From: Blastocatellia bacterium AA13
Lineage (GTDB): Bacteria; Acidobacteriota; Blastocatellia; UBA7656
NCBI GenBank assembly: GCA_003222245.1
Contig: QHVH01000021.1
Coordinates: 8,262 to 72,261, forward strand
Direction of reading: 5' to 3'
Length of the DNA: 64,000 nt
Positions within the stretch are counted from its first letter, which is position 1, and the number at the start of each line of letters is the position of its first letter. A program made the position numbers and the translations under genes. Shown here piece by piece: positions 2,493-52,188 of the stretch. The notes beneath the pieces are model-generated. The model ran no database searches, was not told where the DNA came from, and saw only the letters and a list, made by a program, of their open reading frames with translations.

Positions 2493-5384
2493 TTATGAAT
2501 CAATTGTTAAGGGACTATGCCGGACTCGTTCTCTTGTCTGGTTCTCCAGAAGAAGCGACTCGTCTATCTCGACAAGCCTCTCGGCAGTCAGTCCGCGCGG
2601 GTACTGCATTGCCAGCCACGCGATACACTCAGCCAGCGTCCAGCCGGACTTGAGTCTGGTTACTCGGGCTCGGGCGTTCCGCTCGTCAGGGTTGCTGGTG
2701 AACGTCCACAACTCCATCGGCGATAAATCCACCTGGATCATCTCGACGATCTTGTCGTCGCCCGCCCCTATCGCCAGAAGAAACTGGGCGTGAGAGCCAG
2801 GCAGGTTTCGAATTCCGTTGATCGCCCCGACCGCTACGGGGGCGAGACCGGCGTCGGTAACGAGGCTGTCGTACTCGCCGATTTGCTTTCCCACGATCTT
2901 AACGCCTGCTGTTTTTGTCAGGTCGTGAACACCCTCGAAGTCCTGATAGCCCTGGCTTGCCAGCATCGTGACTACGTTCTCTTTTCTGCCCATCCGGGCC
3001 CCCTTCTTTATGACCTTCAGGATCGCGGGATACCGGTCGACTATCTTGTGAACCTCATCGAAAGCCAAAAGCGTCGGCGACCTCGTGCCGTCCTCATTCA
3101 GCCGGCCGATGGATCGCGTGACTTTCGCGGCGACTCTGAAAGCGAGTGACTCCTGGACCCGCGGAGGAAACATCTCGAGGCTGTCGAGTTCGTAGACATC
3201 GAAGGGCGAATCCACCGCGAAGTCGAGATGAGTGGGCGCGTCAAGCCAGGGATGGTCCCGGAACCGCTCCAAAGCAAGGCTCAAGGATTCCGCCCGCTCC
3301 TGCGCCGCCCGGTGCTTGAACGGATAGCTCTTCAGAAGCTCAAGGAGATGGACATGAGTAGGTTCATGCTTTGGGAGATCCTTGCCGTTGCGGGGCGCTT
3401 CGTTCTTGTAGACTTCAGTGACAAGAGTATTGAGAATGTCTTCGGCCAACGAGTCGGTCTCACGGGCCTGAGCCAACTGCATCAGGTCACCGACGACAAA
3501 GCCAATCTGAACTTCATCGGGTGGGTCGCCGTTATCAAGCCCCTCGTAGTCCCAGACGTTGATCGTTCGGGTATCGCTCAGATTGAACCGGAGATGACGG
3601 CCCTTGAGTACGTCTACAAGCGGCCCCATCGACTCGCCGAAATCGACCGCCCGTACTCGGGCTTCCCTTCGGCTGCCGAGCACGTCGGTAATAGTCCGGG
3701 CCATCAGGACGGACTTGCCGCCCCCGGGCGCCGCTACAATCAGTACCAACGGCGAAGGGATGAGCGCCCGGTCGTAGAGGTCGAATCCGATCAGCCGGCC
3801 GCTGGGCGTTGAGAACAGGGTATGAGGCCGCAGCGAGCCCTCCCATATCGATTCACTCGGAACAAGTGGAGCCAGCGAGTGCGCGGTCTCCGTTATCTCC
3901 CGCCCTGTGGGCCGCGAGTCGCACTCGCCAACAAGAGCCCGGTGATAGACGGCTCGCAGGGCTGCGGGTTCCTCTCTAGATGCATCAGCTCCGGGCATCC
4001 TTCGCATGGCGCTGACCAGTTCCTCGCAATAACCGTTGAGCAAGGACGCCGACTCGACGAGCTCGACTTCGTCTCTTGCCGGCGGAGCGTAGATGACTGC
4101 GTAGATACGAGCTTTCACCACGGCCTCGCGCTCGCCAGTCAGCTCACTCCGTACGCTTTGAAGATCGGCCATCGCCGCGTGTGCTTCGGGTGTTTCTCGA
4201 ACACGCCCGTCCGCGCGCAACCTCGTCCTGCGAACCTGCCGAATCCGCTTATCAAGAAGCTTCACGGCCTTTCGCTGATCGGGATAAACAAACTCGGCGA
4301 CGATGGTATGGCGGAAGCTCAATTCGCTATCGAGCACGAGCGACCGCAGAACGTCCGCCTGAACCGCGGGCTGAGGCGGGACGAACATGCTCACGACTGC
4401 TGCCGGATGCGACCCGTGCAGCATGAAAGGCCCCTGTGACGAGATGGTCTCTCCGCACAGGTAATCTCTGAGATCGAGACCCGGTTCGTCGGGTAGGATC
4501 GGCGTCCCTCTCGCGTCCTGACTGTGACCCAGGTAGACCGCTGCCCAAAGCTCATCGCGGGTGAGCCGCTTCATCTCAAGAGGACTCTCTCGCTCGACCA
4601 ATCGGAAAACTCGCTCGGCTTCGGCTCGTGCTTCTCGTTCGTCGCCTTCGATACGGCGGACGATCCCGTCGTCGGAGCTTGCCTCGTAGCCCGCTGCAAT
4701 TGCTCCGGTGAGCTTCATCCATCCGTGGCGCTTGATTTCGCGGCGCATCGCTGGAACGAAGGTGTTCAGACCGTTCGAATGGGCGTCGCTTTTGTGCTTG
4801 ACCGGCACTCGCACCCACAGCGTCAATACTGTCTGCTTGAACGCACCCCGCAGCGCGGCTTCCTGGTAGTACTCGACCCCGAGGTTATGAAAGAGCGCGG
4901 CTTCGGCATGCGTCCGGCCCTCGTCACGGGTTGCGACGTGCCGCAGTATCGCCCTTCCCGGATCGACTCCAACCGAAAGCCTAAACTGAAGCACCGTGCC
5001 CGGAGGCTTCCTGACGGCTAAGAGTCTCGCAATGGCGTCGGCTCGCGCTTCGATGACGTGATCTTCTCCGTACACTGTAGGGGCAAGCTCGACCCGATAG
5101 CCCATCGTGTATGAGCCGTCCGAATGTCTGAGCGCCGAGTCATAGAGGCCTACAATTGATGCATCGCGCTTGCGGCCGGGCGGCGAGCCAAGATGCCGCC
5201 GCTCCATCTCCAGCATCTCGATGTCGTCAAGGATGACAGCCTCATTGCCGGCTTCGAAGCGCTTCAACTCGCCGCGAGCGCCGGCGTACATGGGAATCAG
5301 CCGAACGGCGCTTCCCAGCCCAATTCCCAACGCGGCAATCCCTGCCGCGCCTGCAATGATCAACCCAGGCTCCATAAGCATCAC
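2493..5384 (-). CDS. virB4: Type IV secretion ATPase VirB4/TrbE
   Basis: 963 aa. Walker A 'VAAPGGGKSVLMA', Walker B 'LLAFDEVHK', an N-terminal TM segment and a T4SS context. Confidence 0.9.
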   Translation of the reverse strand: MMLMEPGLIIAGAAGIAALGIGLGSAVRLIPMYAGARGELKRFEAGNEAVILDDIEMLEMERRHLGSPPGRKRDASIVGLYDSALRHSDGSYTMGYRVELAPTVYGEDHVIEARADAIARLLAVRKPPGTVLQFRLSVGVDPGRAILRHVATRDEGRTHAEAALFHNLGVEYYQEAALRGAFKQTVLTLWVRVPVKHKSDAHSNGLNTFVPAMRREIKRHGWMKLTGAIAAGYEASSDDGIVRRIEGDEREARAEAERVFRLVERESPLEMKRLTRDELWAAVYLGHSQDARGTPILPDEPGLDLRDYLCGETISSQGPFMLHGSHPAAVVSMFVPPQPAVQADVLRSLVLDSELSFRHTIVAEFVYPDQRKAVKLLDKRIRQVRRTRLRADGRVRETPEAHAAMADLQSVRSELTGEREAVVKARIYAVIYAPPARDEVELVESASLLNGYCEELVSAMRRMPGADASREEPAALRAVYHRALVGECDSRPTGREITETAHSLAPLVPSESIWEGSLRPHTLFSTPSGRLIGFDLYDRALIPSPLVLIVAAPGGGKSVLMARTITDVLGSRREARVRAVDFGESMGPLVDVLKGRHLRFNLSDTRTINVWDYEGLDNGDPPDEVQIGFVVGDLMQLAQARETDSLAEDILNTLVTEVYKNEAPRNGKDLPKHEPTHVHLLELLKSYPFKHRAAQERAESLSLALERFRDHPWLDAPTHLDFAVDSPFDVYELDSLEMFPPRVQESLAFRVAAKVTRSIGRLNEDGTRSPTLLAFDEVHKIVDRYPAILKVIKKGARMGRKENVVTMLASQGYQDFEGVHDLTKTAGVKIVGKQIGEYDSLVTDAGLAPVAVGAINGIRNLPGSHAQFLLAIGAGDDKIVEMIQVDLSPMELWTFTSNPDERNARARVTRLKSGWTLAECIAWLAMQYPRGLTAERLVEIDESLLLENQTRERVRHSPLTIDS

Positions 5385-13165: not shown

Positions 13166-15088
13166 ATGTCGTTGATCAACCGTATCCAGAAGTATGACGC
13201 CGAGCACGGCATTCCGCGTCCGATGACCGCGCCCCACCTTACCGCCTATCACGCGGCGCTCCACTGCCTCAAAACCGGCGCCGAGATGTTTAGCCTCATC
13301 TGTTGCGGACTGGTGTCGGCATATCTCTTGTGGATCTCGGCCAACCTCGTCAAGGCCGAGTTTGAAGTTCGTCTGATATTCGTCGCCGGAATGCTGCTGG
13401 CCATGCTCATAAGCGCCGCCGAAGCCTTGCAGTTGCTTATGCCATATCGCCGCTTTAGGCAGCGCCTCACTCACGGCTCGGCGATGTGGGCCGACACCGC
13501 CTGGCTCAAGTCGCAAGGCTTCGCCAAGGACTTCACGGCGACTCTGAAACCGTGTGAACTGAGGCTGGGCAGCCTTCCTACGGGTCACCAACTCGTGCTG
13601 CCCGCTTCTCACACCCTGCGGCACGTCGCGATGTTTGGCCCGCCCGGTTCCGGCAAATCCGCCACCTTCATTTGTACCTTTCTCAGAAACTGGTCCAAGA
13701 ACGGTTCCACGATCGTGCTCGATCCCAAAGGCGAGCTATACGCCCAGACCGCCTCTTACTACGAGCACGCCTATCGGCTGGATCTGATGGAGCCGGACAA
13801 ATCGGACCATTGGAACTTTGTTCCCGTCTGTAAGAACAACGCCGAGCTTGCCCACCAGATCGCTTCCATCATCGTCGGCGCAAAGCCGGGTGCGAAGGCC
13901 ACTGACTCCGAAGGCTTCTGGCGAGACTCTGAAATCGCCGCCCTGAGCGCCATCCTGTTACACCTGCCGCACATCGTCCCCTACCCAACGCCGGCGATGA
14001 TAAACGAGTTCATTTCACTTCGCTCCATCGACGCCGAGGAGGGGCAGTTGCTGTCGCCGCTCACCCGAGAGATGTTCGAATCCCCCGACCCGCAGGTAGG
14101 CGTCTACTGGGGCGCGTTCACCAAGGCCAAGCGCGATCTTCAGGGCTCGATACTCACCGGAGTCATCGCCAAGTGCCAGGCCTTCACGACCCCTAACGTC
14201 CAATCGGTTACCAGCGCCTCCGATGAAGACTCAGTCGGCCGCGCCGAGATTGATCTCAACATGCTCCGCAGCCGCGGTACCGGCATCTATGTCGTCATAC
14301 CGGAAGGTGACGCCGACCGGTATGCGGCGTTTCTTACGACGTTCTTCGGGATCGGAATGGCCGTGTTGAGGAGGGACAAGGTGACCGAGCAAACCGTGCC
14401 GTCGCTTTTCCTGTTTGACGAGGCAGGCAACATCCCCATTTATGGCCTCAAGGAAATGCTTGGCGTGGGACGAGGCCGCAAAGTGGCGGTTGTCCTCGCC
14501 TATCAGAACCTCGGCCAGGTCTATGCCCACTATGGACACGACGGAGGACACGCGGTGCTGGGTTCGATCAATACGATGGTGTTCCTGCCTGGCCTCGATC
14601 AACACACAACCGAGTTTGCCGCCTCGCGAGTCGGACCCACCACCGTCCTCCAACACACGACGGTTGATGCGCCCGGTACACAGAACGACGCCGAGCGGCT
14701 CGCCGAAACCAAGCGCGACCTTATCGACGCTGCCGAGCTGCGGCAGTTGGTTCGCCACAAACAGGCCGTTACCATCATAGACACCGCTCCGCCGATCAAG
14801 TTTGCGTACCCACCGCTTGTCCAGGCTGCTGGCAATGCCCTTTCGGAGGCGGCTCACAAAGGAATGCCCGCGGTCATCGACTTCCGCGGCGCGGAAAAGG
14901 AACTCACAAGTGCGCCGACAGGTAACCCGCTGCCGAATAGCCCGGCCAAGCCCGTTCCAGTAACGACTTCAGAACCTCCAGAGAGAACAACAGACGAAGC
15001 GGCCGGGACCACCGACGGCGAAGGCGAGTCCGGCAAGAGCCAAAAGCCTCCGAGAGTCTCTCCCTTAGGCCTCGATTCAGCGGAGTAA
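13166..15088 (+). CDS. virD4: Type IV coupling protein (VirD4/TraG family)
   Basis: Two N-terminal TM helices, Walker A 'FGPPGSGKSATF', Walker B 'LFLFDEAGN' and a conserved 'VVLAYQNLGQV' region. Confidence 0.85.
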   Translation: MSLINRIQKYDAEHGIPRPMTAPHLTAYHAALHCLKTGAEMFSLICCGLVSAYLLWISANLVKAEFEVRLIFVAGMLLAMLISAAEALQLLMPYRRFRQRLTHGSAMWADTAWLKSQGFAKDFTATLKPCELRLGSLPTGHQLVLPASHTLRHVAMFGPPGSGKSATFICTFLRNWSKNGSTIVLDPKGELYAQTASYYEHAYRLDLMEPDKSDHWNFVPVCKNNAELAHQIASIIVGAKPGAKATDSEGFWRDSEIAALSAILLHLPHIVPYPTPAMINEFISLRSIDAEEGQLLSPLTREMFESPDPQVGVYWGAFTKAKRDLQGSILTGVIAKCQAFTTPNVQSVTSASDEDSVGRAEIDLNMLRSRGTGIYVVIPEGDADRYAAFLTTFFGIGMAVLRRDKVTEQTVPSLFLFDEAGNIPIYGLKEMLGVGRGRKVAVVLAYQNLGQVYAHYGHDGGHAVLGSINTMVFLPGLDQHTTEFAASRVGPTTVLQHTTVDAPGTQNDAERLAETKRDLIDAAELRQLVRHKQAVTIIDTAPPIKFAYPPLVQAAGNALSEAAHKGMPAVIDFRGAEKELTSAPTGNPLPNSPAKPVPVTTSEPPERTTDEAAGTTDGEGESGKSQKPPRVSPLGLDSAE

Positions 15089-17428: not shown

Positions 17429-17827
17429 ATGTCCACCAGCTTTAACAAGATTGCGATCATTGGCTACCTTGGCCGAGACCCTGAGCTGCGCTACACCCCA
17501 GACGGCACGCCCGTTTGTAACTTCTCAGTGGCGACTACCGAGAAACGGAAAGACAAGTCCGGCGAACTGCAAGAAAACACCACCTGGTTTCAAGTCGCGC
17601 TGTTTGGCCGGCGAGCCGAGGTTGCAAAAGAGTACCTGTCCAAAGGCAGCCACGTATGGCTCGAAGGCTCACTGGCGTTGAGTCAGTGGACGGACAACGA
17701 GGGCGCAACCCGCGCCAGCCTCGAAGTCCGAGCCACGGACATCAGATTCCTGTCATCGTCCGGCGAGAAAGCTTCAGCCGCAACCGCCGCCGCTACATCG
17801 GCCACGGACGAAGACGTTCCTTTCTAA
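17429..17827 (+). CDS. ssb: Single-stranded DNA-binding protein
   Basis: OB-fold signature 'NKIAIIGYLGRDPELRYTPDGTPVCNFSVAT..TTWFQVALFGRRAEVAKEYLSKGSHVWLEG' and an acidic tip 'DEDVPF'. Confidence 0.95.
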   Translation: MSTSFNKIAIIGYLGRDPELRYTPDGTPVCNFSVATTEKRKDKSGELQENTTWFQVALFGRRAEVAKEYLSKGSHVWLEGSLALSQWTDNEGATRASLEVRATDIRFLSSSGEKASAATAAATSATDEDVPF

Positions 17828-17890
17828 AATATGGAAAACCAGAGAACCCAGGAGCCGGGCACATCGCTCGGCTTCTGGCCCAAATTTTTC

Positions 17891-17921
17891 GCGGGACAGT
17901 TTCTGGCCGAAACTGTCCCGC
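17891..17921. terminator. Perfect 13-bp stem-loop after ssb
   Basis: 'gcgggacagtttc-tggcc-gaaactgtcccgc'. It has no downstream T-tract on the plus strand, though 'aaattttt' lies just upstream. Confidence 0.4.
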
Positions 17922-18024
17922 TATCCAGACAAGGGCAGAGGCACGCGCCATAACTTATGCGCGCGCCGACCCGCGTATTGCGCGTCGTGAACGCCTAGAG
18001 AGATTCCGCTTTGGAGTAGGACCG

Positions 18025-18915
18025 ATGAGTCAAATACCCAATCACATAAACGCCCGACGCTCAAGCCGCGTAAGCCAGGCTTCTGGATTAGCAGAGGCAA
18101 CTGTAATGCTCGATCTCTTCGAAGCTCTCGGCGTGCGTTCGTTCGCTCTCACACTCACCGACGAAACCGGGCATAAGGTAGCCTACCAACCCCACAGAGC
18201 CCTTAGCACGCTCCGCATCGAACTGCTCGGCATATTGCTCAGGGCATTTCAAAAGCGTCTTAATGTCATAGTCAGGCCGCTCGCAGCCCATGCCCTCTCG
18301 CTCGTCCAGCTTGACGATCTGAGTCCGTCGCAGCTTGATCGAGTCAGCGGCTTCTCATTCCTTGTGCTTGAAACCAGCCCCGGAAACTTTCAGGCATGGT
18401 TGGCCGTCAAAGATGCGGACGCAGCAACCATGCGCCGCATCAAGAAAGCAGCGGGAGCAGACCCGAGCGCAAGCGGCGCGACGAGAATCGCCGGTTCATA
18501 CAACTTCAAACCGAAGTACGCTCCGGATTATCATCGAGTACAACTGCAATCCATCGCGCCAAAGCGCACCGTCATCGTAGCCGAGCTTGATAGCGCAGGG
18601 CTCCTTGCGCAAGAGGAACCCCCGCCCTCCGCTCCCGGCCATGCTCCCCGCCTTCGGCGCAAGCATCGGCTATCAAAGTGGCCGAGCTACGCGCGCTGTC
18701 TAGCTGACGCACCTAAGGCGAAGAATCACGAAGGCAAGGACCGCAGCGCTGCGGACTTTATGTTCTGCCTGCTCTCGATTGATAGAGGATGGCCGGTGAA
18801 GGCTGTCGCCAACCAGCTCCTCGTCGAAAGCGAGAAGGCGAGATGCCTCGGCGGTAAGTACGCGCTCTTCACGGCCGAGCGAGCCGAATCGGTCGTCAAC
18901 CGCAATCGTACCTAA
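18025..18915 (+). CDS. RepB-type (RSF1010 RepB-prime-like) DNA primase domain protein
   Basis: 'LNVIVRPL', 'LVQLDDL' and 'FLVLETSPGNFQAWLAV' match my recollection of the RepB_primase family. ATG at 18025 follows 'ggag'. The longest ORF (17656) overlaps ssb out of frame. Confidence 0.65.
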   Translation: MSQIPNHINARRSSRVSQASGLAEATVMLDLFEALGVRSFALTLTDETGHKVAYQPHRALSTLRIELLGILLRAFQKRLNVIVRPLAAHALSLVQLDDLSPSQLDRVSGFSFLVLETSPGNFQAWLAVKDADAATMRRIKKAAGADPSASGATRIAGSYNFKPKYAPDYHRVQLQSIAPKRTVIVAELDSAGLLAQEEPPPSAPGHAPRLRRKHRLSKWPSYARCLADAPKAKNHEGKDRSAADFMFCLLSIDRGWPVKAVANQLLVESEKARCLGGKYALFTAERAESVVNRNRT

Positions 18916-31220: not shown

Positions 31221-32543
31221 ATGAAGATGGACAGCAATGATTCAACCGTATCGAAAGCGATATCGGTGATCCACACAAGAGCCGAAGTAATGCCCCCCGA
31301 TTTTACCGCTGAGTTTTCTCTTCCTAACCCGAAGCAGGAAGCCTTCAGCTCTCCCCGCCAGATTTTCATATTCCTCGACGGCACATGGAACGAAGAACGC
31401 GCTCCATGGGGAAAGGTGATACCTACGAATGTGCTTCGAATGTTCCAAGAATTAAATCACAAGACCGTCCATGAACTGAGATCGTTACCTGAAGGAAAAA
31501 ATTCCACTGAAATAATCGGACACTACTATCGAGGAGTCGGAAGCCGTCAGGACAATAACGTAGTAGACCGAAAGTGGTTCGGATTTAATGGAAAAGATGA
31601 AGAGAGAATTCGCGGAGCTGCCTTTGCGGATCTGTACCGCGACTACACGAATAATAATGATCGCATTTACATTCTTGGCTTCAGTCGTGGTGCTGCCAGT
31701 GCTCGCTTGCTGGCACGGGATATCTGTATCTCAGGGCTCCCGCCACGATTGAGGGTCCATACGACTCACTTTCCGAATCTATTGACAGGCCAGATTGAGG
31801 CACGAGTGGATCGTGTCGAAAGGCTGCATGATGATCCGACGGGCGAGAAAAATCACCGCCCAAAAGTTGCGTTCCTGGGCTGTTGGGACACTGTTGATGC
31901 TTTTGTCTTGCCGTCTCGGTTTCCGACTCAGGGATTGATGGACAAAGGCGTCCGCATGCTCAAATCATCGATTCCTGCCCTATTGGGGAAGGAGAGGTTT
32001 AAGGGAGAAGAGAATGGAATTCCCGAAGGAGTCTTGAAGGCCGTACACTGCGTCGCTATTGATGAAACACGACACGCCTTTCTTCCCAGCCTAATGCCTC
32101 ATGCGGATAACGTTGAAGAGGTCTGGTTCCCGGGTGTCCACTCAGATATCGGCGGTGGATACAATGATAGCGGGCTGGCGCAGGCGCCGTATGAATTTAT
32201 GAAGAAGCAACTGATAGCTGCGGCTGACTTGGGGAACCAAAATCTATTCAAGATCAGCGAGCGCCCGAGTTTTTCCTCGGAATTCTGCTTTCATTTTCAC
32301 GGATTGAATACCGGGTTAAAGCGCGCTATGAATGTCTTTGGCTTTGGAACAAGCATACGCAGCATACGCGTGTTAGACGCCAAAGATGGCGTAAAGCCCA
32401 AAATTCATGATTCGCTTAATAAAGTCATGACTAGCGATTCTGTCTACGCCGCTGATACTCGAGACAAGCGTACATGGACAATTACTTATGACCCATACAA
32501 TGTCAGGGAGTTACGACAGGAGTTCGACGTTGTCTCGGATTAA
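31221..32543 (+). CDS. DUF2235 alpha/beta hydrolase (Tle1-like phospholipase fold)
   Basis: 'IFLDGTWNE', 'YILGFSRGAASARLLA' (GxSxG), 'FLGCWDTVDAF' and 'FPGVHSDIGGGY'. Confidence 0.8.
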   Translation: MKMDSNDSTVSKAISVIHTRAEVMPPDFTAEFSLPNPKQEAFSSPRQIFIFLDGTWNEERAPWGKVIPTNVLRMFQELNHKTVHELRSLPEGKNSTEIIGHYYRGVGSRQDNNVVDRKWFGFNGKDEERIRGAAFADLYRDYTNNNDRIYILGFSRGAASARLLARDICISGLPPRLRVHTTHFPNLLTGQIEARVDRVERLHDDPTGEKNHRPKVAFLGCWDTVDAFVLPSRFPTQGLMDKGVRMLKSSIPALLGKERFKGEENGIPEGVLKAVHCVAIDETRHAFLPSLMPHADNVEEVWFPGVHSDIGGGYNDSGLAQAPYEFMKKQLIAAADLGNQNLFKISERPSFSSEFCFHFHGLNTGLKRAMNVFGFGTSIRSIRVLDAKDGVKPKIHDSLNKVMTSDSVYAADTRDKRTWTITYDPYNVRELRQEFDVVSD

Positions 32544-33062: not shown

Positions 33063-34409
33063 TCAGTTGTTGTGGCATATCCATAGCGCATGGAATGTTG
33101 CGTTTGGGTTTTCAGACACATACTGACTCAACGGTTTGTTTTGTCTGGCATGTGAGTGCTGAGAGCATAATATCCCGCTCCAATCCCAGCAATTGGTGGT
33201 GTAAACGCGGTAGGTGATGATCATGACATGATCTATCACGCCGTCATTTTCCCAGTCGGCGAAAATCACGTCGCCAATATCAAGGTCGCAAGGGTAACGA
33301 GTAATGAATCCTCGGCCGCTGTTTTCAACAAAATATCTCAGGGCCCTTGCTTGCGTCCAGCTTCGGGTTTGTCCGGTCTTCTTACCTCCAAACTCGTCGT
33401 ACCACCACAGTCCCCAATTTTTATAGCTATTTCCAAAGCCCTTATTGGTCCAGCCACCCCAGTTGAGCGACTGAGATACGAAATTCGTGCAGTCAGGATC
33501 AAAAATCCTGAAATAGGGGTTCGCGTTGTATGCCTGATTAAAGGCATAGGTCGCGGCAGCATTCCTATCATAATCACAGGTCTGCGGAACGATCGTGCTA
33601 CTGATCTCGGTTAGCGTCGGCCCCGGAGGTATTTGGCTGTAAGTCAGCTCCTCTGGAAAGCAACAGAAACTCGAGTCATCAGCATTTGGATCACACGGAT
33701 AGTATCCATCCGAGTCGCATCCCGTTGAGTCATAGATGGGGTCGTAGCCGGTTTGAACCATTGATGAAGAATTTCGAAGACCTCCGGAGGTTCCTCTGGT
33801 TGACCATTTGGTTCTTGAGACTCCGTGACTCTTCTCAAATACGAACACGTGTTCGACCTGCTCTCCGGCCGGTGGGCCTCCACGATCGATAGAGTAATAT
33901 TGCGTCGTTTCTTCCAGCGCATCCAGAAGCACCTTCTCTCCGTCTCTACGAAGACCAAGCGGAGTAAGCTTTACTTCTACTCTGCTGATTGTCCTTCCTC
34001 GTCTGAAGTTATCTTGAAACACTCTCTGACCGACCGCGATCCGCTCTTCAGCCGATCGCTCTTTTCGAGTCTCGCCATCGAATCGCGTCACTAAAACCTG
34101 GGGTGGGGGTGAGCCGTGGACCTTGATGTTGTGCTCGGCCTCCAACATAGCTTTAGCCTGTCGTGTTAGGGTCTCGATGAGAGCTTGGTCGGCGCTGCCT
34201 TGAATTGAACTGAAGCCAGTCAAACCCGTTTGCCTCATTAAGACTGGGCGCGCCGAATGGTCGGCCGACCCATGCCGCATTAACGGTGTAATCACTACGA
34301 GAGTTATAGAAGCCGAGACTAGGGCCAAACGCCGCCAAATTTGTGGTTGTGTTGCCATTCTAGACCTCCATCCTCTGCAAGGGAGATTCGCACCCCTGTT
34401 GTTGACCAA
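33063..34409 (-). CDS. Secreted protein with a C-terminal putative amidase (NlpC/P60-like Cys peptidase) domain
   Basis: 'DPDCTNFVSQSLNWGGW' and 'GDVIFADWENDGVIDHVMII', with an N-terminal hydrophobic signal. Confidence 0.6.
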   Translation of the reverse strand: MVNNRGANLPCRGWRSRMATQPQIWRRLALVSASITLVVITPLMRHGSADHSARPVLMRQTGLTGFSSIQGSADQALIETLTRQAKAMLEAEHNIKVHGSPPPQVLVTRFDGETRKERSAEERIAVGQRVFQDNFRRGRTISRVEVKLTPLGLRRDGEKVLLDALEETTQYYSIDRGGPPAGEQVEHVFVFEKSHGVSRTKWSTRGTSGGLRNSSSMVQTGYDPIYDSTGCDSDGYYPCDPNADDSSFCCFPEELTYSQIPPGPTLTEISSTIVPQTCDYDRNAAATYAFNQAYNANPYFRIFDPDCTNFVSQSLNWGGWTNKGFGNSYKNWGLWWYDEFGGKKTGQTRSWTQARALRYFVENSGRGFITRYPCDLDIGDVIFADWENDGVIDHVMIITYRVYTTNCWDWSGILCSQHSHARQNKPLSQYVSENPNATFHALWICHNN

Positions 34410-42919: not shown

Positions 42920-43258
42920 GTGAAGCAACTGACTCTCAGTCAAATAGTGCCATTGCACCAGGATGAGATGGGTAGCGTGCGAATAATGGGTTCTCGCGTC
43001 ACGCTCGACACTCTGGTGGCGGCGTTCAAAAAGGGCAACACAGCCGAACAAATCCAGGACAGCTTTCCTTCGTTGTCTTTGCGGCAAATTTACGGCGCGA
43101 TCGCTTACTACCTCGATCACCAGGAAGACGTTGAGGCGTATCTTGAGGAACGCCAGACTGAAGCCGACGCTATCCGCCGTGAGATCGAAAGTCAGCCGCA
43201 ATATAGCGAATTCCGAGAGAAGCTCCGCCGGCGCCGCGCCGAATTGATCGACGCCTGA
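42920..43258 (+). CDS. DUF433-type antitoxin-like protein
   Basis: 'GSRVTLDTLVAAFKKGNTAEQIQDSFPSLSLRQIYGAIAYYLDHQEDV'. Confidence 0.7.
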   Translation: MKQLTLSQIVPLHQDEMGSVRIMGSRVTLDTLVAAFKKGNTAEQIQDSFPSLSLRQIYGAIAYYLDHQEDVEAYLEERQTEADAIRREIESQPQYSEFREKLRRRRAELIDA

Positions 43259-43281
43259 CTCAACGATCCTCTTCCCCTACT

Positions 43282-43632
43282 ATGCTGCCACTGTTAATAG
43301 ACGAGAACTTCGACCAGCGAATTCTCCGCGGTCTACGATTACGTCTTCCGCAACTCGATTACCTGATCGTTCAGGACATCGGTCTCGGCGGGCTCGGTGA
43401 TCCGGCGCTCTTGGATTGGGGCGCCAGAGAAGGCCGAGTGATCTTGAGCCACGATGTCAACACTCTAACCAAATTCGGCGCCGACCGATTGAAGCAGTTC
43501 CTACCAATGCCGGGTGTCATCATTGTTCCGGAGCAACTCGAAATCGGTCGAGCTATCGACGATTTGGAAATAATTATCGAATGCAGCACAGCCGCCGATC
43601 TTGAGAGTCAGATTCAGTACTTCCCACTGTAA
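43282..43632 (+). CDS. DUF5615 (PIN-like/Mut7-C-like) toxin-like protein
   Basis: 'LLIDENFDQRILRGLR' N-terminus, 116 aa, 23 bp after the DUF433 gene. Confidence 0.65.
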   Translation: MLPLLIDENFDQRILRGLRLRLPQLDYLIVQDIGLGGLGDPALLDWGAREGRVILSHDVNTLTKFGADRLKQFLPMPGVIIVPEQLEIGRAIDDLEIIIECSTAADLESQIQYFPL

Positions 43633-44007: not shown

Positions 44008-45183
44008 TCAATCGGGAAGTCTCCAACTTGGCTGAAACCCCTGGTTCATCGCTATTTGGGCCTGAGGCAAAATGACTTCCCGATACTTGGCAAGTAGACC
44101 TGATTCATCCAGAGTCAGCAACCCAGCAACATCCTCCTTGAAGCAGTCCGTATAGTCTTCGAGAAATGTGGGCTGCCTTTGCGCAACCTCGATCGCAGCA
44201 AAGTGAAGCTTGCCGAGTCTAGGAAGGTATAGATCAAGGTCGGGTAGGGAATCGGCCTTGCTGGAATTCGTTGCTGTTTCGACCGGCGTAAGATTCCACA
44301 GCAAATCGTGTACGACGAAACTCCACGGCAGAAAGTGATCGATTGAAAAACTCTCAGCCAGCAGCCGCCCTGAGTATATGTCCTTGAACTCCGCGCCCCG
44401 TCCTTTCTGCTCAAACTCATCGCGAACGATCCGCCAGAAGTTCCGTGCACCGGCGAGTTGTCGCACCTTTGGCGCTTCAAGCTTGTTCACTATGCCCGGC
44501 ACGTTCGGATTCCTCGCCTGCAAGTAGACTGACAGGTGATGTTCAGCGAATGCTTGTGCGATGCCAAGGTTTTCCACAAGGAATGCTCGCCAGGAGTCGT
44601 TAAGATGCAGCGAACCGCGTGCCCCCATACCTTCAAAGTAGTAGGGACAAGCAAACGGAGTCGTCTGGCTGTTCCTCGCCATCGTACGAATCGCGTGCGT
44701 CCGCTTTGTGTAGTCTCGCTCGCCGCTGAGCTGCTGGGCGAACCAGGGAGTAAGGAAGCGCGTGGGCACGTACCGATTGAAGAATTCCAGCATCTTCCGC
44801 GCATTCGGGGAACCCTCCACAAACTCGCGGACGGTCTCGGGAACGGCGTTCGGTAACAGACCAGACTCTTGCTTGATCTGCAGAACCACCTCTTGAAGCT
44901 TATCCTGTCGACCGAGCGAAAGGCGGTAGAGACAAACTGGGTGCCAAGCTATAACGGCCATTTCAGTAAAAATGCCTGGCAGACTAAGAGAACGCGTGGC
45001 CGTTCGCCTGATCAGTGAGAGGATGGCCAAAAACCAGAAGAGCTTGTAAGAGTTTGTGGTGTCGTTGAAGACTTGCGACAAGTAAAACGTCTTCTCCGGG
45101 TACCGCTGCACAACGCCGGTGAGAATTGAGTCTGATCCAGTTCGAGACATCATCCTCCAGTCTCCAGCCCCGGCGCACAACAC
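44008..45183 (-). CDS. HNH endonuclease-domain protein with an unknown N-terminal domain
   Basis: 'FSIDHFLPWSFVVHDLLWNLTPVETATNSSKAD' (H..N..N/H core). N-terminal 'TNSYKLFWFLAILSLI' region. Confidence 0.7.
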   Translation of the reverse strand: MLCAGAGDWRMMSRTGSDSILTGVVQRYPEKTFYLSQVFNDTTNSYKLFWFLAILSLIRRTATRSLSLPGIFTEMAVIAWHPVCLYRLSLGRQDKLQEVVLQIKQESGLLPNAVPETVREFVEGSPNARKMLEFFNRYVPTRFLTPWFAQQLSGERDYTKRTHAIRTMARNSQTTPFACPYYFEGMGARGSLHLNDSWRAFLVENLGIAQAFAEHHLSVYLQARNPNVPGIVNKLEAPKVRQLAGARNFWRIVRDEFEQKGRGAEFKDIYSGRLLAESFSIDHFLPWSFVVHDLLWNLTPVETATNSSKADSLPDLDLYLPRLGKLHFAAIEVAQRQPTFLEDYTDCFKEDVAGLLTLDESGLLAKYREVILPQAQIAMNQGFQPSWRLPD

Positions 45184-46577: not shown

Positions 46578-47555
46578 ATGAAATCCACGGTCATAATATT
46601 CTTCTTCCTGCTTTTGTGTGCTACTTCGTTTGCACAAACTCCGCCAGTTTCTCTTCCCAACCCGGCTGGCTCCGTACAAGAGAATTCGCAGGACGAGGAG
46701 CGCAAGAAGTTGACGGCGCGACTAGAAAAGCTCGAAGCAGTTGTTGCAAAAGCGGCTTCAGACTCATCGCGCGATAAACTCGTGACAGCCATTATCGCTG
46801 GCTCAGCCAGCTTGTTTGCTGCATTACTGGCTGGCGGACTTACATTACTCGGGCAGCGCTTCATGGCGAAGCAGCAAGAAAGGCAAGCGAACAACATAGC
46901 AGTGGAGCAGGCACAGCAGGCTGAGATTACCGCGAAGAGAGCCTTGGAACTCGCCCGTTATGAGGCAGTGTTTGCCCATACCGAAAAGATCCTCGAATAC
47001 CGTCTCAAACAAATGGAGTTGTTCTATGCGCCGATGTTCGCTCTTCTGAAGCAGAGCAAGGCGCTTTACGACAAAATGAACTATCAGATCGCGCATGACG
47101 AACCGGATCGCTACAGATTGCTCGATGAGCCCGATGATCAAGGTTACCGCATGCACGTCAAGGCCGATGACGGCTCCTGGAAAGGATTTCGATTACTTGA
47201 TCAACTACCGGCGATAAGGTCGAATTTGAAGGCATTGACTCTCGCCGAGCGTATTCTCCAGATAGGCGAACAGATGACGAAGATTATCTCAGACTACGCC
47301 GGCCTCGCCTCCGCGGATTTGGTCGACTTACTTGGCGAATACCTTGCTCATTACGCGATCCTTTCCACGATCCACAAGAGCGGGGAGACTGTGCCCTATG
47401 ACCCGGGATGGCACAAGATGGGCTACTATCCCCGCCCCTTGAATGGAAAGATCGAAGAGGGTTATCGAGAAGTAGCTCAGTTTCTTGACGAGTATTCGAG
47501 CGCTAGCAGGGGCCTATTAGAAAGCTTGCCGAAGAACGCTGGTCCGCCAGCATGA
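46578..47555 (+). CDS. Hypothetical protein with a signal peptide, coiled coil, TM segment and C-terminal globular domain
   Basis: 'VIIFFFLLLCATSFAQ' and TM 'IIAGSASLFAALLAGGLTLLG'. ATGA overlap with the downstream methyltransferase gene. Confidence 0.55.
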   Translation: MKSTVIIFFFLLLCATSFAQTPPVSLPNPAGSVQENSQDEERKKLTARLEKLEAVVAKAASDSSRDKLVTAIIAGSASLFAALLAGGLTLLGQRFMAKQQERQANNIAVEQAQQAEITAKRALELARYEAVFAHTEKILEYRLKQMELFYAPMFALLKQSKALYDKMNYQIAHDEPDRYRLLDEPDDQGYRMHVKADDGSWKGFRLLDQLPAIRSNLKALTLAERILQIGEQMTKIISDYAGLASADLVDLLGEYLAHYAILSTIHKSGETVPYDPGWHKMGYYPRPLNGKIEEGYREVAQFLDEYSSASRGLLESLPKNAGPPA

Positions 47556-48181
47556 ATTGTCAGATTATGTCGGCTACTACTTATGATCAAGGTACCCTGG
47601 CCTTTTACGAGAGACGCGGTCAGGAGTTCTGCCAGGCAACCATGAGTCTGGACCTGCACGAGCTATACGAACCGTTCTTGAAGGAGCTGCCTCTGGGCGC
47701 CCATATCCTCGACGCTGGGTGCGGCTCCGGTCGAGACACCAAAGCATTCTTGGAACGAGGGTATCGCGTTACCGCCATTGATGCGTCTCCACAGATGGCC
47801 TCATTGGCAACGGAGCACACAGGGCAGTCTTGCCAGGTCCTTTCCTTTCAGGAACTCGATTTTCGGGAAGAGTTCGATGGCATATGGGCCTGCGCTTCCC
47901 TTCTTCATGTGCCCAAAACCGAAATGGATGATGTGTTGCGTCGCCTTGCAGGTGCACTGAAAGTTGGAGGTGTTCTCTACACCTCACTGAAAGAGGGCTA
48001 CGGAGAACGTATAGCTGAAGACGGCAGATTCTTCAGCTACTACTCGAGAGAGTCTTTCAAGGAACTTCTCAACACTCATCCGATACTGGACGAGATCGCG
48101 TTTTGGAAGACTGAGGATACTCGGTCCAGGGAGCATATAGGCCCCTGGCTCAATTTTTTATTGAAGAGGCGAAGGTCGTAA
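47552..48181 (+). CDS. Small class I SAM-dependent methyltransferase
   Basis: Motif I 'ILDAGCGSGRDT', 'VTAIDASPQM' and 'FDGIWACASLLHV'. Confidence 0.8.
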   Translation: MNCQIMSATTYDQGTLAFYERRGQEFCQATMSLDLHELYEPFLKELPLGAHILDAGCGSGRDTKAFLERGYRVTAIDASPQMASLATEHTGQSCQVLSFQELDFREEFDGIWACASLLHVPKTEMDDVLRRLAGALKVGGVLYTSLKEGYGERIAEDGRFFSYYSRESFKELLNTHPILDEIAFWKTEDTRSREHIGPWLNFLLKRRRS

Positions 48182-48260: not shown

Positions 48261-49262
48261 CTAAGTGAATATGGCTTCAGTGAAGGTCGGGAAGTATCTA
48301 TAGAGCTCAGCGTAGCGCCTGATGTCGGAAGTAGAAACACCGGGAAGGCTCAAGGCAGCCGCCTCTGCTTCAGGAAGCTGAGCATTTAGATGGCGCATCT
48401 CTTTCATCGTGAGACAGGGTACGTCAATAGCATAAGCTTCCTCTCCAAAACGAATGAAATCAAGTTCGTTGAAGGAACATGCCTCAAACTTCTCGAAGTC
48501 CCCGGCTTCGAATAAGATTCCTCCAACAGTGAGCATTCGTGCTCCGTCGCTGTAGTTAAAGTTCAATATCTGACGGTAGAGCATCTTCTTCTCGGATGGC
48601 AAAAGACCGTTGCGGTCTGACAATGTCTCTTCGATTCTATTGTCAATAAGCTTTCGTGAGATTCTCGCAAGCCCCCCTCCCCTCAATTCGCTGCCAAGAA
48701 CCTCAGGAGGCAACGCTTCGCCAACGCGATTGTGTAGTTCACGTAGACGGTAGGCATCGAGATCAAACGCAAGGCCGGTTTCTGCCTTGTATTGCTGGCG
48801 TACAGTTTCGTTAGGCTGTCCCTCCACGTGAGCATTCACAGAAATAACCAAAACGCTGCCCGAATATGATCTGGCCGCTACCGTGCTGATGTCTGACAAC
48901 ACAGTTTCGTCAAGCTTGCCGTCATAGTCTAGCCAAACTATGGATTTGGCCCGCCAATCCAGTTCGGGCAATACAGCAGAAGCCGGGCGGCAATCCAGGC
49001 GAACGCAGTTGTAGGGCTTATTGAACAGGAAGCACTCCTCGGCATCAGCATCCTTCTCCATGCTGAGCATGTCTTCCATCCCCAGGGCACGATGGAACAG
49101 ATGGAAGTCAGTGAAGTATATTGAGCCGAAGCCTAAATAACGGTACGTTGCTACCTTTGCGAACGGGGACAATCGACGGAAAGCGTCACACAACATCTTG
49201 CGCTCAATTGCCTTTGCGGGGCGCACAGAATAGTTGATCCTTCGATAGCTGCTAGCCATCAC
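48261..49262 (-). CDS. Hypothetical 333-aa protein, last gene of the dnd-type operon
   Basis: ATGA overlap with the upstream GHKL gene. 'YRYLGFGSIYFTDFHLFHRALGMEDMLSMEKD' hints at a Rossmann-like beta-strand/Gly-loop/acidic pattern, but I recognise no family. Confidence 0.6.
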   Translation of the reverse strand: MMASSYRRINYSVRPAKAIERKMLCDAFRRLSPFAKVATYRYLGFGSIYFTDFHLFHRALGMEDMLSMEKDADAEECFLFNKPYNCVRLDCRPASAVLPELDWRAKSIVWLDYDGKLDETVLSDISTVAARSYSGSVLVISVNAHVEGQPNETVRQQYKAETGLAFDLDAYRLRELHNRVGEALPPEVLGSELRGGGLARISRKLIDNRIEETLSDRNGLLPSEKKMLYRQILNFNYSDGARMLTVGGILFEAGDFEKFEACSFNELDFIRFGEEAYAIDVPCLTMKEMRHLNAQLPEAEAAALSLPGVSTSDIRRYAELYRYFPTFTEAIFT

Positions 49263-50629
49263 TGCTTCTCCTCGTAATGCATGAAGTATTCGAACGTTTT
49301 TTCCCCCACCGCCGTGAACGTGTGAACGTCGAGAAGCTCCTTTGCTTTTTCTACTTCGGTCAACGGCTTGCTGTACTGGATTCTCGCCATCCTCGGTCCC
49401 GGAGGTCTGGGTCTTGGCTGAGGCGCGACAAAGACTCGCGTGACCGCAAGCGAGTCAGTCCGTTTGGCCTCCGCGCTGTGAATTGCCTCCTCTAGCGTGC
49501 TATCGCCTATATCTCCACTCTCAATTGCCGCCTTTTCCTTAGCTAGGTTGGAAAGAAACGTAAGCACAGGTTTCGATATCTCAACCATCTCTAGTTGAGC
49601 GCTCTTATAAACTGCTGAATCGATGTCTACTCCTGTTTTCGTGGTAGTCCACGGCAATAGTCCTGCATCATCCGAGTCGAAATAGGCATAACCTCGAAAA
49701 TATGCAACGTCGGGATGGTATTGACGCATGCCGTGGGTCTGTCCCCAAATCGTCGTCGAGGTCTGGTCCGCACGTATCACCATGCGCCCGTTGCAGAACA
49801 CGTACCAACCGCCATCGTGCAAGCTTCTCTCGGCGACGCCGGCGTAGAGCTTCACATTCACACGTGCATCTGGCTTTCCGTTCAGTAGCTCCCCTTGGTA
49901 TGTCCTCTCAATAAAAGCGGGCTTCATCTGGTCTGACTCAAATAGCGTTTGAGGCTCATGACGGAGTGGAATAGTGTTTACTGTAATCGCTAGTCCTTTG
50001 TCCATGCTAATGCTATGCGCAAGAGACATCTCTTGTTTCAGTCGCGTCAGAAAGTTCTCAAGGCCAAAGCTCTCCCCGACCGTATCGTAGAGCTGTGTTA
50101 CTTCAAGCCGGGTACCGACCTCGTTCTTTGGTACGTCGATGAGTTTGTCTTCGATGTTCTGGAACTCGAAATGCCACTCGTCTGCCTTCTCCGATTCGTC
50201 CAGCGCCATCCACTGTGCAACATCAATGTCCATGTTGAATCGAGATGAACTGGTGACCGAATGGACGCTGAAGTGTCGCCCCAGTTTGAAGAATGTGCGC
50301 TTCATGCCAACGCCGAATTGTCCCACCGATCCAGGAGTGAGTGGAGCATCTTTCGAGCGACCAAACCGGAACGCATAATGCCTGGCAATATCGACCGGGA
50401 TACCGCCGCAATTGTCCGCTATCTTAAAGTGGTCTTTATCAAGCTCCGCGCGAACCCAGAGCCCATCGAAATCGCCGTTTGGTCGCATCCGCCTGGCACC
50501 GTCAAGCGAATTGTCCACCAAGTCCAGAATGGCACGGGTAAGCGGTATATCTCGGGTCAACATATAGATGAAGAACTCCTTAGTTGGAGAAGCGTCAATG
50601 CGCTTTGGGTCTGCTGGATTCTCCGGCAC
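49259..50629 (-). CDS. GHKL (Bergerat-fold, HATPase_c_3-like) ATPase
   Basis: N-box 'LDLVDNSLDGA', G1 'DNCGGIP' and G2 'GQFGVGMKRTFFKLG'. Confidence 0.75.
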   Translation of the reverse strand: MPENPADPKRIDASPTKEFFIYMLTRDIPLTRAILDLVDNSLDGARRMRPNGDFDGLWVRAELDKDHFKIADNCGGIPVDIARHYAFRFGRSKDAPLTPGSVGQFGVGMKRTFFKLGRHFSVHSVTSSSRFNMDIDVAQWMALDESEKADEWHFEFQNIEDKLIDVPKNEVGTRLEVTQLYDTVGESFGLENFLTRLKQEMSLAHSISMDKGLAITVNTIPLRHEPQTLFESDQMKPAFIERTYQGELLNGKPDARVNVKLYAGVAERSLHDGGWYVFCNGRMVIRADQTSTTIWGQTHGMRQYHPDVAYFRGYAYFDSDDAGLLPWTTTKTGVDIDSAVYKSAQLEMVEISKPVLTFLSNLAKEKAAIESGDIGDSTLEEAIHSAEAKRTDSLAVTRVFVAPQPRPRPPGPRMARIQYSKPLTEVEKAKELLDVHTFTAVGEKTFEYFMHYEEKQ

Positions 50630-50643
50630 GGGTTAGCCTCCTT

Positions 50644-52125
50644 TCACTTTCCTTCATCTCTCCAGAACTGTCTTGCCGGACCTACCAGGAGTTTGCCCTG
50701 TAGCCGGAGGGCCCCTTCGGCTTTGACCAGTTCGCGATTGATCACTCCGCCGAGGATTCTGCGCTGCTGTGGCTCCCTGAGTGAGCTCGGCGAAAAGTGA
50801 ATGCCGCACTCCGCAAGCTCGACGAAGTTGGTCGCGTTGTCACCACCCGTGATAAATGCATCGGCGCCCTGAGACGCAAGCCACACCGGGAAGCCCCACG
50901 AGCGGCCCTGCCGGGCAAGCTGACCAAGCAAGCCCGCTTTGCCCTCCTTTGGCAATAGCAGATGCGCCTCGTCGACAAACAGCACCATCTTCAGCGGTTG
51001 AATTCCGTTCTTGATAGCAAGGTTTTGGTTGAGTCGCTTGATTAGAAAGTTCAGAATAAGCGCGACCGTTAGAGACTTGGTCTCACTGTCGGTCCCGAAC
51101 TGCTTGAAGTCAACTACGATTGAACTGTTGAGCCACTCCTCGGGGCTGACTGCTGTCACTGCGCTAGCAAACAGGTTGAACCGCTCTATCTTCTGGATGA
51201 TTGCAAGGTCAACACCGTCCGCGCCGCTCTCCTCTAGCTTTATTGCCAGCGTGGTGAAGTCCGGCTCGCGAAGCTCTTGGTAGGCGTCGCATATGTTCCT
51301 TTCCTGCTTCGCGCCAAGCTGTGGCGCGAAGCAACGAATCAGATTCGCAATCTCGTACGCGATTTGCGCATTTGCTGTCGGGTTAGGGTCGCGGATGAGT
51401 GGATTTATTGGCAAGTCCTGTCTAATCAGACGGACGTAGCGTGCGCCCGTCTGTTGCAAGAACAGTGTCCGGTTTCGCCGCTGCTCGGGGTTGTTAGGGT
51501 CGTCTTCCAACTCGCCCTTAAGATCAAAGAAAACGAATCTGACTCCCTGCGCAGCCAACTGCGCGAGTAGATCAAGCGCGAGCTGACTCTTCCCTGAGCC
51601 CGGCTCACCTGAGATGACCAGGAGGCCGTTCTTTGTGCCGGTGCCGTTTAAGCTCCATTCTGGTCCGTCCAACAGGACTTTGAGCTTTACTTCCTTTTCA
51701 ACTATGGGGATCGGCGCGACTCGCGACCCGAGCGAGCGGGAACCGAAGTCTTCTCCAGTCAGTTTAAGCAACGCTGAAACAAACCGCGTTTGGTCGTTGC
51801 CGCAGTCTTCCCATATCTCCCTCAATCGCTGGCATCCGTATTCGAAATGCTGACGGAATGCTTGGCGGTAGCCCGTTTCATCCAGTTCTTTGCCGGTCCG
51901 ATGATTAAGCGCCGCCCGGACTACGTCACGCAGTTCGTCGCCAATCACGGTTTCATCATCGAGGTCTTTTCCCTGGGAGTTAGCCGGTTTGAATGTCCGC
52001 GGGACGCCTTCGCCAAGAGCAAGGAATAGCGCGGAGCGACCGAGGACGGCCTTGTTGCGCGCGCCGATACGCTGGTGAATATCCTCGATGAACTGTTCCG
52101 CGGCCAGACTCGGCTTGAATTTCAT
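50644..52125 (-). CDS. DndE-like N-terminal domain fused to a HerA/FtsK-type (DUF87-like) P-loop ATPase
   Basis: The first 115 aa or so ('SLAAEQFIEDIHQRIGARNKAVLGRSALFLALGEG..FRQHFEYGCQRL') resemble DndE as I recall it. These are followed by Walker A 'ISGEPGSGKSQL' and Walker B 'VLFVDEAHLL'. The gene sits directly after dndD. Confidence 0.6.
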   Translation of the reverse strand: MKFKPSLAAEQFIEDIHQRIGARNKAVLGRSALFLALGEGVPRTFKPANSQGKDLDDETVIGDELRDVVRAALNHRTGKELDETGYRQAFRQHFEYGCQRLREIWEDCGNDQTRFVSALLKLTGEDFGSRSLGSRVAPIPIVEKEVKLKVLLDGPEWSLNGTGTKNGLLVISGEPGSGKSQLALDLLAQLAAQGVRFVFFDLKGELEDDPNNPEQRRNRTLFLQQTGARYVRLIRQDLPINPLIRDPNPTANAQIAYEIANLIRCFAPQLGAKQERNICDAYQELREPDFTTLAIKLEESGADGVDLAIIQKIERFNLFASAVTAVSPEEWLNSSIVVDFKQFGTDSETKSLTVALILNFLIKRLNQNLAIKNGIQPLKMVLFVDEAHLLLPKEGKAGLLGQLARQGRSWGFPVWLASQGADAFITGGDNATNFVELAECGIHFSPSSLREPQQRRILGGVINRELVKAEGALRLQGKLLVGPARQFWRDEGK

Positions 52126-52188
52126 AAACAGCCTTGCCTTAGAAGTTCTTCTACTTGCAGTCGGTTCTAATCCAACTGGATTTGCACC

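Follow-up and report, generated by a model that had tools for sequence, protein, structure and literature searches.

Target search and partial site modification are unsettled matters in Dnd systems, and what DndD and DndE do in phosphorothioate (PT) modification of DNA has been inferred rather than shown. A gene on contig QHVH01000021.1 of Blastocatellia bacterium AA13 (assembly GCA_003222245.1), which lives in soil, raises the question whether the DndE subunit can carry a motor of its own, and what such a motor would contribute. The gene is located in a stretch of 64,000 nucleotides (forward strand of the contig, positions 8,262 to 72,261), which was analyzed as a whole and is called the window here. 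An initial annotation made from the sequence alone had described the encoded protein as a DndE-like domain fused to a HerA/FtsK-type P-loop ATPase, and both parts of this description were borne out by profile searches and fold comparisons. With a probability of roughly 0.55 we favor the reading that the fusion protein is the DndE subunit of a PT operon, and that its tethered and intact HerA/FtsK ATPase ring would thread or load DNA for translocation-coupled scanning.

The novelty that the initial annotation implied did not hold. Fusion of a HerA/FtsK ATPase to DndE ('clade-3'), beside a DndD-related ABC ATPase, was stated by Rakesh, Aravind and Krishnan (NAR 2024; PMC10853773), and NCBI names the best 120 of 720 database matches 'DndE family protein' automatically. 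The published fusion resembles the window gene in architecture, in its PT-modification context and in the kinship of the ATPase to some DndH C-terminal domains. Nothing essential differs between the two; the paper devotes one sentence and a tree to the fusion, without mechanism, accessory survey or experiment. With the fusion already on record, the value of the present analysis lies in confirmation and in context, that is, in a second, FtsK-annotated family and in a survey of interchangeable accessory modules.

The fusion protein and its two domains

The gene has exactly the boundaries given in the initial annotation, which had left the strand unstated. It is read on the minus strand, from the ATG at 52125 to the TGA at 50644, as one uninterrupted frame of 493 amino acids (aa); the plus-strand reading of the same interval was ruled out, its frame being broken by many stops. 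A modest AAGG is found 5' of the ATG, and the stop codon of the preceding gene is 63 nt away. The four motifs by which the protein had been recognized are all present, two in the N-terminal part (GRSALFLALGEG, aa 29-40, and FRQHFEYGCQRL, aa 90-101) and two in the C-terminal part, namely Walker A (GEPGSGKSQL, aa 173-182) and Walker B (LFVDEAHLL, aa 382-390).

The DndE assignment of about the first 115 residues had been made from sequence similarity and gene position. On the whole protein the Pfam profile DndE (PF08870) matched aa 4-103 with E=3.3e-9 and 37.5 bits, the gathering score being 25, and on the isolated N-terminal domain it scored 41.4 bits (E=2e-10). Judged by these profile scores, the assignment is well beyond chance. 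AlphaFold2 modeled aa 1-122 confidently (predicted local distance difference test, pLDDT, about 80) as a strand-helix-helix unit occurring twice, with a long helix and a C-terminal helix (strands 2-3 and 55-56; helices 7-16, 25-39, 57-77, 83-107 and 112-122). When this model was compared with solved structures by Foldseek, it superimposed on DndE of E. coli B7A (4LRV) with a template modeling (TM) score of 0.70-0.75 and a root-mean-square deviation of about 2.9 Å, and on DndE of N. bangense (7X4E) with a TM score of 0.78 and a deviation of 2.5 Å; across 4LRV, 5WTU and 7X4E the TM scores ranged from 0.66 to 0.78. A double ribbon-helix-helix layout, an elongated helix H2b and a C-terminal helix have been described for all DndE proteins (PMC10853773), and the predicted fold of the N-terminal domain has each of these features, with the ribbon-helix-helix units in tandem.

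The N-terminal domain thus shares with canonical DndE (4LRV, 7X4E, PF08870) the fold and also the operon position after a DndD-type ABC ATPase, whereas identity in structural alignments is 17-20%. The canonical protein stands alone and has about 105-125 aa, in contrast to the window protein, which has roughly 370 aa more in the form of a linker and an ATPase. Sequence searches did not bridge this distance: a phmmer search of 1.84 billion representative sequences with the N-terminal domain returned 32 proteins, all of them from its own family or fragments thereof and none a canonical DndE, and a family profile did not reach the DndE entries among the sequences of the Protein Data Bank (PDB). 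The link to canonical DndE therefore depends on Pfam and on fold comparison.

The C-terminal half was matched by the Pfam families AAA_10, TrwB_AAD_bind and HerA_C, as expected from the initial annotation. Among PADLOC profiles, the C-terminal ATPase region of DndH (profile positions 1357-1652 of 1715) matched with E=1.8e-13 and mad8 (PDLC04140), the best PADLOC match, covered aa 165-425 with E=3.6e-16. A profile search of PDB sequences connected the ATPase core with DptH (7ES4) and with the HerA-like YjgR, and in Foldseek comparisons the nearest structures were the C-terminal domain of DndH (7ES4, E=6e-9), VirB4 (4AG6, 3.6e-6) and HerA (4D2I, 4.6e-5). The C-terminal domain of DndH/DptH is thus the closest solved structure as well as a near PADLOC profile (aa 157-435), and it shares the Walker B, arginine and glutamine motifs of the fusion. 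The gene mad8 encodes an ATPase needed for MADS defense; its profile also matched a 963-aa protein of a conjugative element in the window, which makes it a generic detector of HerA/VirB4-type ATPases. A relationship to MADS was rejected, for only domain-level matches to mad8 and mad2 were found, and no eight-gene mad1-8 operon is present in the window.

The HerA/FtsK clade is defined by an arginine finger and a glutamine sensor-1 (PMC10853773). R408 and Q419 of the fusion protein align with the equivalent arginine and glutamine of DptH and YjgR, and these residues, like those of both Walker motifs, are invariant in the alignment of 51 family members that was used for the invariant residues and for the AlphaFold2 model (Table 1). 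As far as can be told from sequence, the ATPase keeps every catalytic hallmark of the ring-forming HerA/FtsK motors. The core is minimal. It has no HAS barrel of the HerA type, no FtsK alpha and no FtsK gamma domain; a 40-aa linker precedes it and a helical tail follows, in which C440, G441, H443, F444, S445 and P446 form a motif conserved in the family alignment.

The architecture proved to be stable. The 187 unique full-length homologues, which come from independent assemblies including closed chromosomes, have equal length and equal architecture, and none is interrupted. Mean pairwise identity among these sequences is 0.70 for the DndE domain and 0.75 for the ATPase; both halves of the fusion are under strong purifying selection.

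Operon context and distribution

The fusion gene follows a DndD-related gene directly, as had been assumed from its position, and this gene in turn overlaps dndC by 8 nt; all three are on the same strand. DndC scored 382.6 bits with the equivalog model TIGR03183 (cut-off 290.4) and has the PP-loop SGGKDS and the cysteines CWTC. The DndD-like protein has the Walker A sequence GKNGAGKT and the signature SAGQRQ; the published wording for the partner ATPase of the fusion is likewise 'DndD-related' (PMC10853773). A cysteine desulfurase gene on the opposite strand encodes the probable sulfur donor, with NifS and DndA equivalog scores just under the cut-offs.

No other DndE was detected in the window: family hidden Markov models applied to the six-frame translation matched this gene only, and when 84 small ORFs of the window were scanned in a batch against Pfam, 24 families were returned, with DndE coming from the positive control only. 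A separate dndE was also absent within 10 kb of six annotated homologous loci. These observations mean that the fusion must supply the DndE function. The window therefore has a complete set of DndC, DndD-like protein and desulfurase, to which the fusion is the only available DndE. PADLOC profiles for DndB, DndF, DndG and full-length DndH matched none of the window genes. The DndFGH restriction system was ruled out on the ground that only the C-terminal ATPase region of DndH is matched and that DndF and DndG are missing. The PbeABCD system, characterized by a CxC-ABC-ATPase, was likewise dismissed; PbeC profiles matched the DndD-like protein, but the latter contains just three cysteines, none of them in a CxC motif, and neighboring HKD or SF2 genes are missing.

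Relatives of the fusion were numerous. A homology search gave 720 matches; of the best 120, nearly every one was full length (492-521 aa, with a few down to 466 aa), and identity was 71-89%. In a collection with one genome per species, at least 123 loci encoded a relative; among the best 80 of these nearly all were full length, and they came from Binatia, Verrucomicrobiota, Nitrospirota, Acidobacteriota, Planctomycetota, Abditibacteriota, several proteobacterial genera and Bathyarchaeia. Across the many bacterial phyla and Bathyarchaeia identity spans 50-89%. The locus was also found again in soil metagenomes, in five runs from three studies.

Gene order was compared in non-redundant loci with enough flanking sequence, the counts being uncorrected for relatedness. 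Upstream, both DndC and the DndD-like gene were found in 62 of 68 loci, DndC in 65 and the pairing with the DndD-like gene in 64. In 57 of 86 loci a homologue of the cysteine desulfurase was encoded no more than 10 kb away. The downstream position was more varied: among 64 loci it held DndB in 24, a GHKL ATPase together with a PF20553 protein in 11 (never in company with DndB), a desulfurase only in 17 and something else in 12. Neither DndB nor the GHKL+PF20553 pair was present within 3 kb downstream in 29 of the 64.

In 26 of 86 loci (e.g. L005, 9737-9991) the DndD-like gene is separated from the fusion gene by an ORF of about 84 aa. It had no match to any Pfam family; by analogy, it may correspond to the small proteins Sp-DndD and PbeB of other Dnd-type systems. 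The window is without this ORF and has a spacer of 63 nt at 52126-52188 instead.

Table 1. Coordinates of the fusion gene, its parts and associated genes (window positions unless a locus number is given)
Feature	Position	Strand	Evidence
dndE::herA/ftsK fusion gene, 493 aa	50644..52125	minus	ORF; Pfam; fold matches; 187 unique full-length homologues
DndE domain, aa 1-122: two ribbon-helix-helix units (S1a-H1a-H2a, S1b-H1b-H2b) and C-terminal helix	51760..52125	minus	PF08870; AlphaFold2; Foldseek
Linker, aa 123-165	51631..51759	minus	pLDDT 25-47; highest mean column entropy (1.59), most variable segment
HerA/FtsK-type P-loop ATPase core, aa 166-430	50836..51630	minus	PADLOC DndH C-terminus and mad8; DptH (7ES4) and YjgR profiles; Foldseek
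Walker A GEPGSGKS, aa 173-180	51586..51609	minus	G173, G176, G178, K179, S180 invariant (51 sequences)
Walker B LFVDEAH, aa 382-388	50962..50982	minus	D385, E386 invariant (51 sequences)
Arginine-finger candidates R405/R408 and sensor-1 Q419, just downstream of Walker B	about 50869-50913	minus	Invariant (51 sequences)
C-terminal helical tail, aa 431-493, with stop codon	50644..50835	minus	Helices 451-475 and 481-489, low pLDDT
DndD-related ABC ATPase with coiled-coil insert, 688 aa	52189..54255	minus	TIGR03185; PADLOC DndD 6.7e-66
dndC (PP-loop/PAPS-reductase-type sulfurtransferase), 438 aa	54248..55564	minus	TIGR03183; PADLOC DndC 7e-127
Cysteine desulfurase (NifS/IscS/DndA-like), 390 aa	45372..46544	plus	Aminotran_5 9e-86; PADLOC DndA 2e-144
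GHKL ATPase (HATPase_c_3, paraMORC-like), 456 aa	49259..50629	minus	Pfam; PHROG 20521 full length
PF20553 'Methyltransf_35' protein, 333 aa	48261..49262	minus	Pfam 1e-100; AlphaFold2 pLDDT 86
GHKL+PF20553 loci	48261-50629; L002, L009, L012, L014, L017, L036, L042, L048, L055, L056, L058, L073, L087-L099	minus (window)	
325-aa uncharacterized protein and 209-aa SAM methyltransferase	46578..48181	plus, convergent with dnd operon	Recurs in L007, L014
Second-family fusion genes	L089 10076-11623; L100 8001-9578; L101 8001-9539	minus (L089)	Domain architecture

Possible roles of the ATPase

A second family of fusions bears on the question of what the ATPase is for. Its members, of about 512-525 aa, consist of a DndE-like N-terminal domain followed by FtsK_alpha and FtsK_SpoIIIE, and were found in loci of Accumulibacter, Nitrosospira and Polaromonas (e.g. 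Nitrosospira sp. Nsp5, Polaromonas sp. CT11-55). The databases name them 'DNA translocase FtsK' only, and PF08870 is recorded for about one third of them. The DndE domains of the two families can be aligned (23-24% identity, E about 1e-4), whereas BLASTP gave no alignment between the ATPase halves, which implies that the motor was replaced or that the fusion arose twice. Both families combine DndC, a DndD-like protein and a DndE-fused motor, and both have the same alternative accessories, namely DndB, the GHKL+PF20553 pair, and a protein of about 330 aa with a methyltransferase. The second family differs in having a true FtsK alpha and beta motor and an additional small protein, Sp-DndD (PF20306), the order of its operon being DndC, Sp-DndD, DndD-like, fusion. 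FtsK-alpha is otherwise reported only from clade-2 DndH and cellular FtsK (PMC10853773), and the 'clade-3' of that paper could mean the window-type fusion, the FtsK-alpha type, or both; the FtsK-alpha type may be under-described. That DndE was joined to two different ring motors argues that motor coupling itself was selected.

The idea of the initial annotation that the fusion would link the modification complex with an NTP-driven motor or an oligomeric ring is a reasonable one. The scanning reading that we favor draws on the identity of the domains, the invariant catalytic residues, the synteny of the operon, the absence of another DndE and the phyletic spread. Its steps would be the following. 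The C-terminal domain would assemble into a ring on double-stranded DNA, by analogy with other HerA/FtsK ATPases, and, powered by ATP, the ring would thread or load the DNA past the DndE domains to which it is tethered and past the machinery of DndC and the DndD-like protein, so that target sites would be found by translocation-coupled scanning; the cysteine desulfurase would give sulfur to DndC, and DndC would write the PT mark. A scanning model for DndD-DndE is in the literature, and for Ssp systems scanning by a ring-forming ORC/CDC6 ATPase with SspB was proposed (both in PMC10853773). The motor-scanning view parallels the Ssp proposal, though the likeness to SspABCD would be one of function only, a ring-forming ATPase proposed to move along DNA with a recognition subunit: the Ssp ATPase is of the AAA+ type and not HerA/FtsK, SspB has a triple winged helix-turn-helix and not a ribbon-helix-helix DndE domain, and the two are separate polypeptides. 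A natural DndE-motor fusion offers a handle for testing ATP-driven DNA threading in site search, and with the single point mutants K179A, E386Q and R408A the binding of DNA should be separable from the activity of the motor.

Several observations weigh against this reading. With the NCBIfam DndE equivalog model TIGR03184 the fusion scored 24.1 bits, below the cut-off of 71.85, so that by its scores the N-terminal domain belongs to a divergent DndE subfamily and is not a canonical equivalog. The DndD-like protein aligned with TIGR03185 over the full length and also remained under the cut-off (182.6 bits, 245.85 required). With both proteins below equivalog level, their functional equivalence to DndE and DndD is an assumption. 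For the ATPase half AlphaFold2 gave a model of mediocre quality (mean pLDDT 66.5, residues 418-465 below 50). None of the fusion gene's words occurred in the soil metatranscriptomes of the same study, which thus gave no RNA evidence, and a literature search on DndE with HerA or FtsK yielded PMC10853773 as the sole relevant paper and no experimental study. Finally, the DNA-binding interface of DndE is described as hypervariable, and diversification of DndE was proposed to set target specificity (PMC10853773). Among the 187 sequences the DndE domain is conserved, not hypervariable, and falls into only two allelic classes, which fits poorly with the published idea. The two classes co-vary and differ, among other positions, at residue 4 (K or D/E), which belongs to the first predicted beta-strand, and at aa 53-56 (KDLD or VTLN), in the region of the second; they are candidates for two DNA-recognition specificities. 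Alternatively, specificity may lie outside the DndE domain, or the family may share one motif.

Of the other explanations the one that survives best, though we consider it unlikely, is that the ATPase is no translocase but an ATP-gated switch for assembly or regulation, which oligomerizes DndE and controls the timing or amount of modification by DndC/DndD, e.g. partial site occupancy. The minimal core, lacking the HAS barrel and the alpha and gamma domains of FtsK, would suit such a role, canonical DndE crystallizes as an oligomer (16 chains in 4LRV), and DndB, a proposed ATP-linked regulator, is missing from the window and from most loci. It is at odds with a switch that the arginine finger and sensor-1 glutamine of ring-forming ATPases are invariant, that the closest structures (the C-terminal domain of DndH, VirB4 and HerA) are motors acting on DNA or another substrate, and that the second family has a genuine FtsK alpha-beta motor.

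Kinship to DndH suggests another role, on the side of defense: the ATPase would capture or pump invading DNA, as proposed for DndH, with the DndE domain serving only for targeting, and it may feed GHKL+PF20553 or HNH effectors. The ATPase is indeed closest to the C-terminus of DndH, DndE-fused ATPases were placed in the clade of some DndH domains (PMC10853773), and defense-type modules lie directly downstream. DndH itself, however, is a protein of about 1700 aa with an SF2-C region, a target recognition domain, an inactive methylase and a restriction endonuclease, and works with DndF and DndG (PMC10853773); none of these is present in the window. The conserved core has no nuclease, the accessories vary or are missing (DndB and the GHKL+PF20553 pair are both lacking in 29 of 64 loci), the HNH gene is unique to the window, and modification has no DndE other than the fusion to draw on. 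Taken together, these points make a defense-side ATPase improbable.

A further possibility is that the pair of DndD-like protein and DndE::ATPase is responsible for a non-PT modification, or serves only to read the modification status. DndDE cores with cytosine methylases or without DndC have been noted, a role of this kind having been suggested for the cores without DndC (PMC10853773), and two genes of the island have a SAM-methyltransferase fold. We regard this as very improbable, however, given that DndC is at equivalog level in the window and present in 65 of 68 loci, that a desulfurase is usually near and that the methyltransferase modules are optional. The weakest explanation, an artefact in which sequencing or assembly errors merged two neighboring genes, has nothing in its favor except that such mergers are possible a priori in assembled metagenomes, and it is virtually excluded by the conservation of the uninterrupted frame in the 187 full-length homologues from independent assemblies and closed chromosomes, and by the presence of the locus in the five soil runs of three studies.

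Accessory modules and the surrounding region

The fusion gene is followed after 14 nt, which contain AAGGAGG, by the gene of a GHKL ATPase, and this overlaps by 4 nt with the gene of a PF20553 protein. The model of the latter predicts a class-I fold of S-adenosylmethionine (SAM)-dependent methyltransferases, with generic matches only and no specific match to a DNA methylase. Both belong to full-length PHROG families without known function, the typical sizes being about 450 aa and about 332 aa. The two genes were always adjacent, and usually overlapped, in 13 loci of the family, in 3 distant loci and on 10 viral contigs. In the distant loci the pair was found beside a canonical dndBCDE with stand-alone DndE (L087), a fusion system of the FtsK type (L089), and genes of the Mrr/BglII type (L088); the viral contigs carry no dnd genes. 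This distribution, as seen in the gene order, looks like that of an autonomous mobile module which often lands beside PT systems.

Neither PADLOC nor NCBIfam had a match for the GHKL+PF20553 pair. PDB sequence searches with these two proteins and with the HNH protein described below were empty or gave matches at chance level. Literature searches for PF20553, or for GHKL with phosphorothioate, brought nothing relevant, and the text of the supplement of PMC10853773 contains neither GHKL nor MORC. The Vibrio GHKL-Shedu system and a survey of paraMORC proteins were considered and set aside, as they describe systems different from this pair.

Combining the accessory survey with the two fusion families, we put forward a tentative and rather doubtful generalization with two parts: that PT-writing modules, like DndH, would have undergone 'motor capture', one DndE lineage having joined two unrelated ring motors for processive scanning, and that GHKL+PF20553 would be a new PT-linked regulator or effector in the slot of DndB. 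The latter suggestion stems from the position of the pair in this slot, never together with DndB, from its occurrence beside canonical dndBCDE and from its presence alone on viral contigs.

The next module consists of a 325-aa protein and a methyltransferase. The methyltransferase (209 aa) had a domain match to mad2 in PADLOC. A related pair was also observed beside a fusion gene of the second family (L100, 9713-11358), the identities being 28% (E=4e-27) and 46% (E=8e-59), respectively. DndB, GHKL+PF20553 and the 325-aa protein with its methyltransferase would be interchangeable accessories outside the core.

The cysteine desulfurase gene is adjoined by a gene on the minus strand (44008-45183) for a protein of 391 aa with a C-terminal HNH_4 domain and an uncharacterized N-terminal region of about 250 aa. 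It had no homologue in 86 related loci, and no PT-sensing domain of the SBD type was recognizable in its sequence. All the same, this protein could be a modification-dependent nuclease.

The left 43 kb of the window (about 1-43000) probably represent an integrative or conjugative element. This region encodes a VirD4/TraG coupling protein (13166-15088), the 963-aa VirB4/HerA-like ATPase mentioned above (2493-5384) and a RepB-type primase (17656-18915), and has matches to a single-stranded DNA-binding protein (SSB), an SLT transglycosylase and ArdC-N/MPTase, as well as genes for a Tle1-like phospholipase (31221-32543) and an Amidase_6 protein (33063-34409). Along its length the G+C fraction drops from about 0.59 to about 0.53. 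A pair of small genes on the plus strand (42920-43632), DUF433 and DUF5615 (PIN-like), marks the edge of the dnd island and is probably a toxin-antitoxin pair; a similar one is located directly 3' of the fusion gene in two other loci, L005 (11508-12110) and L006.

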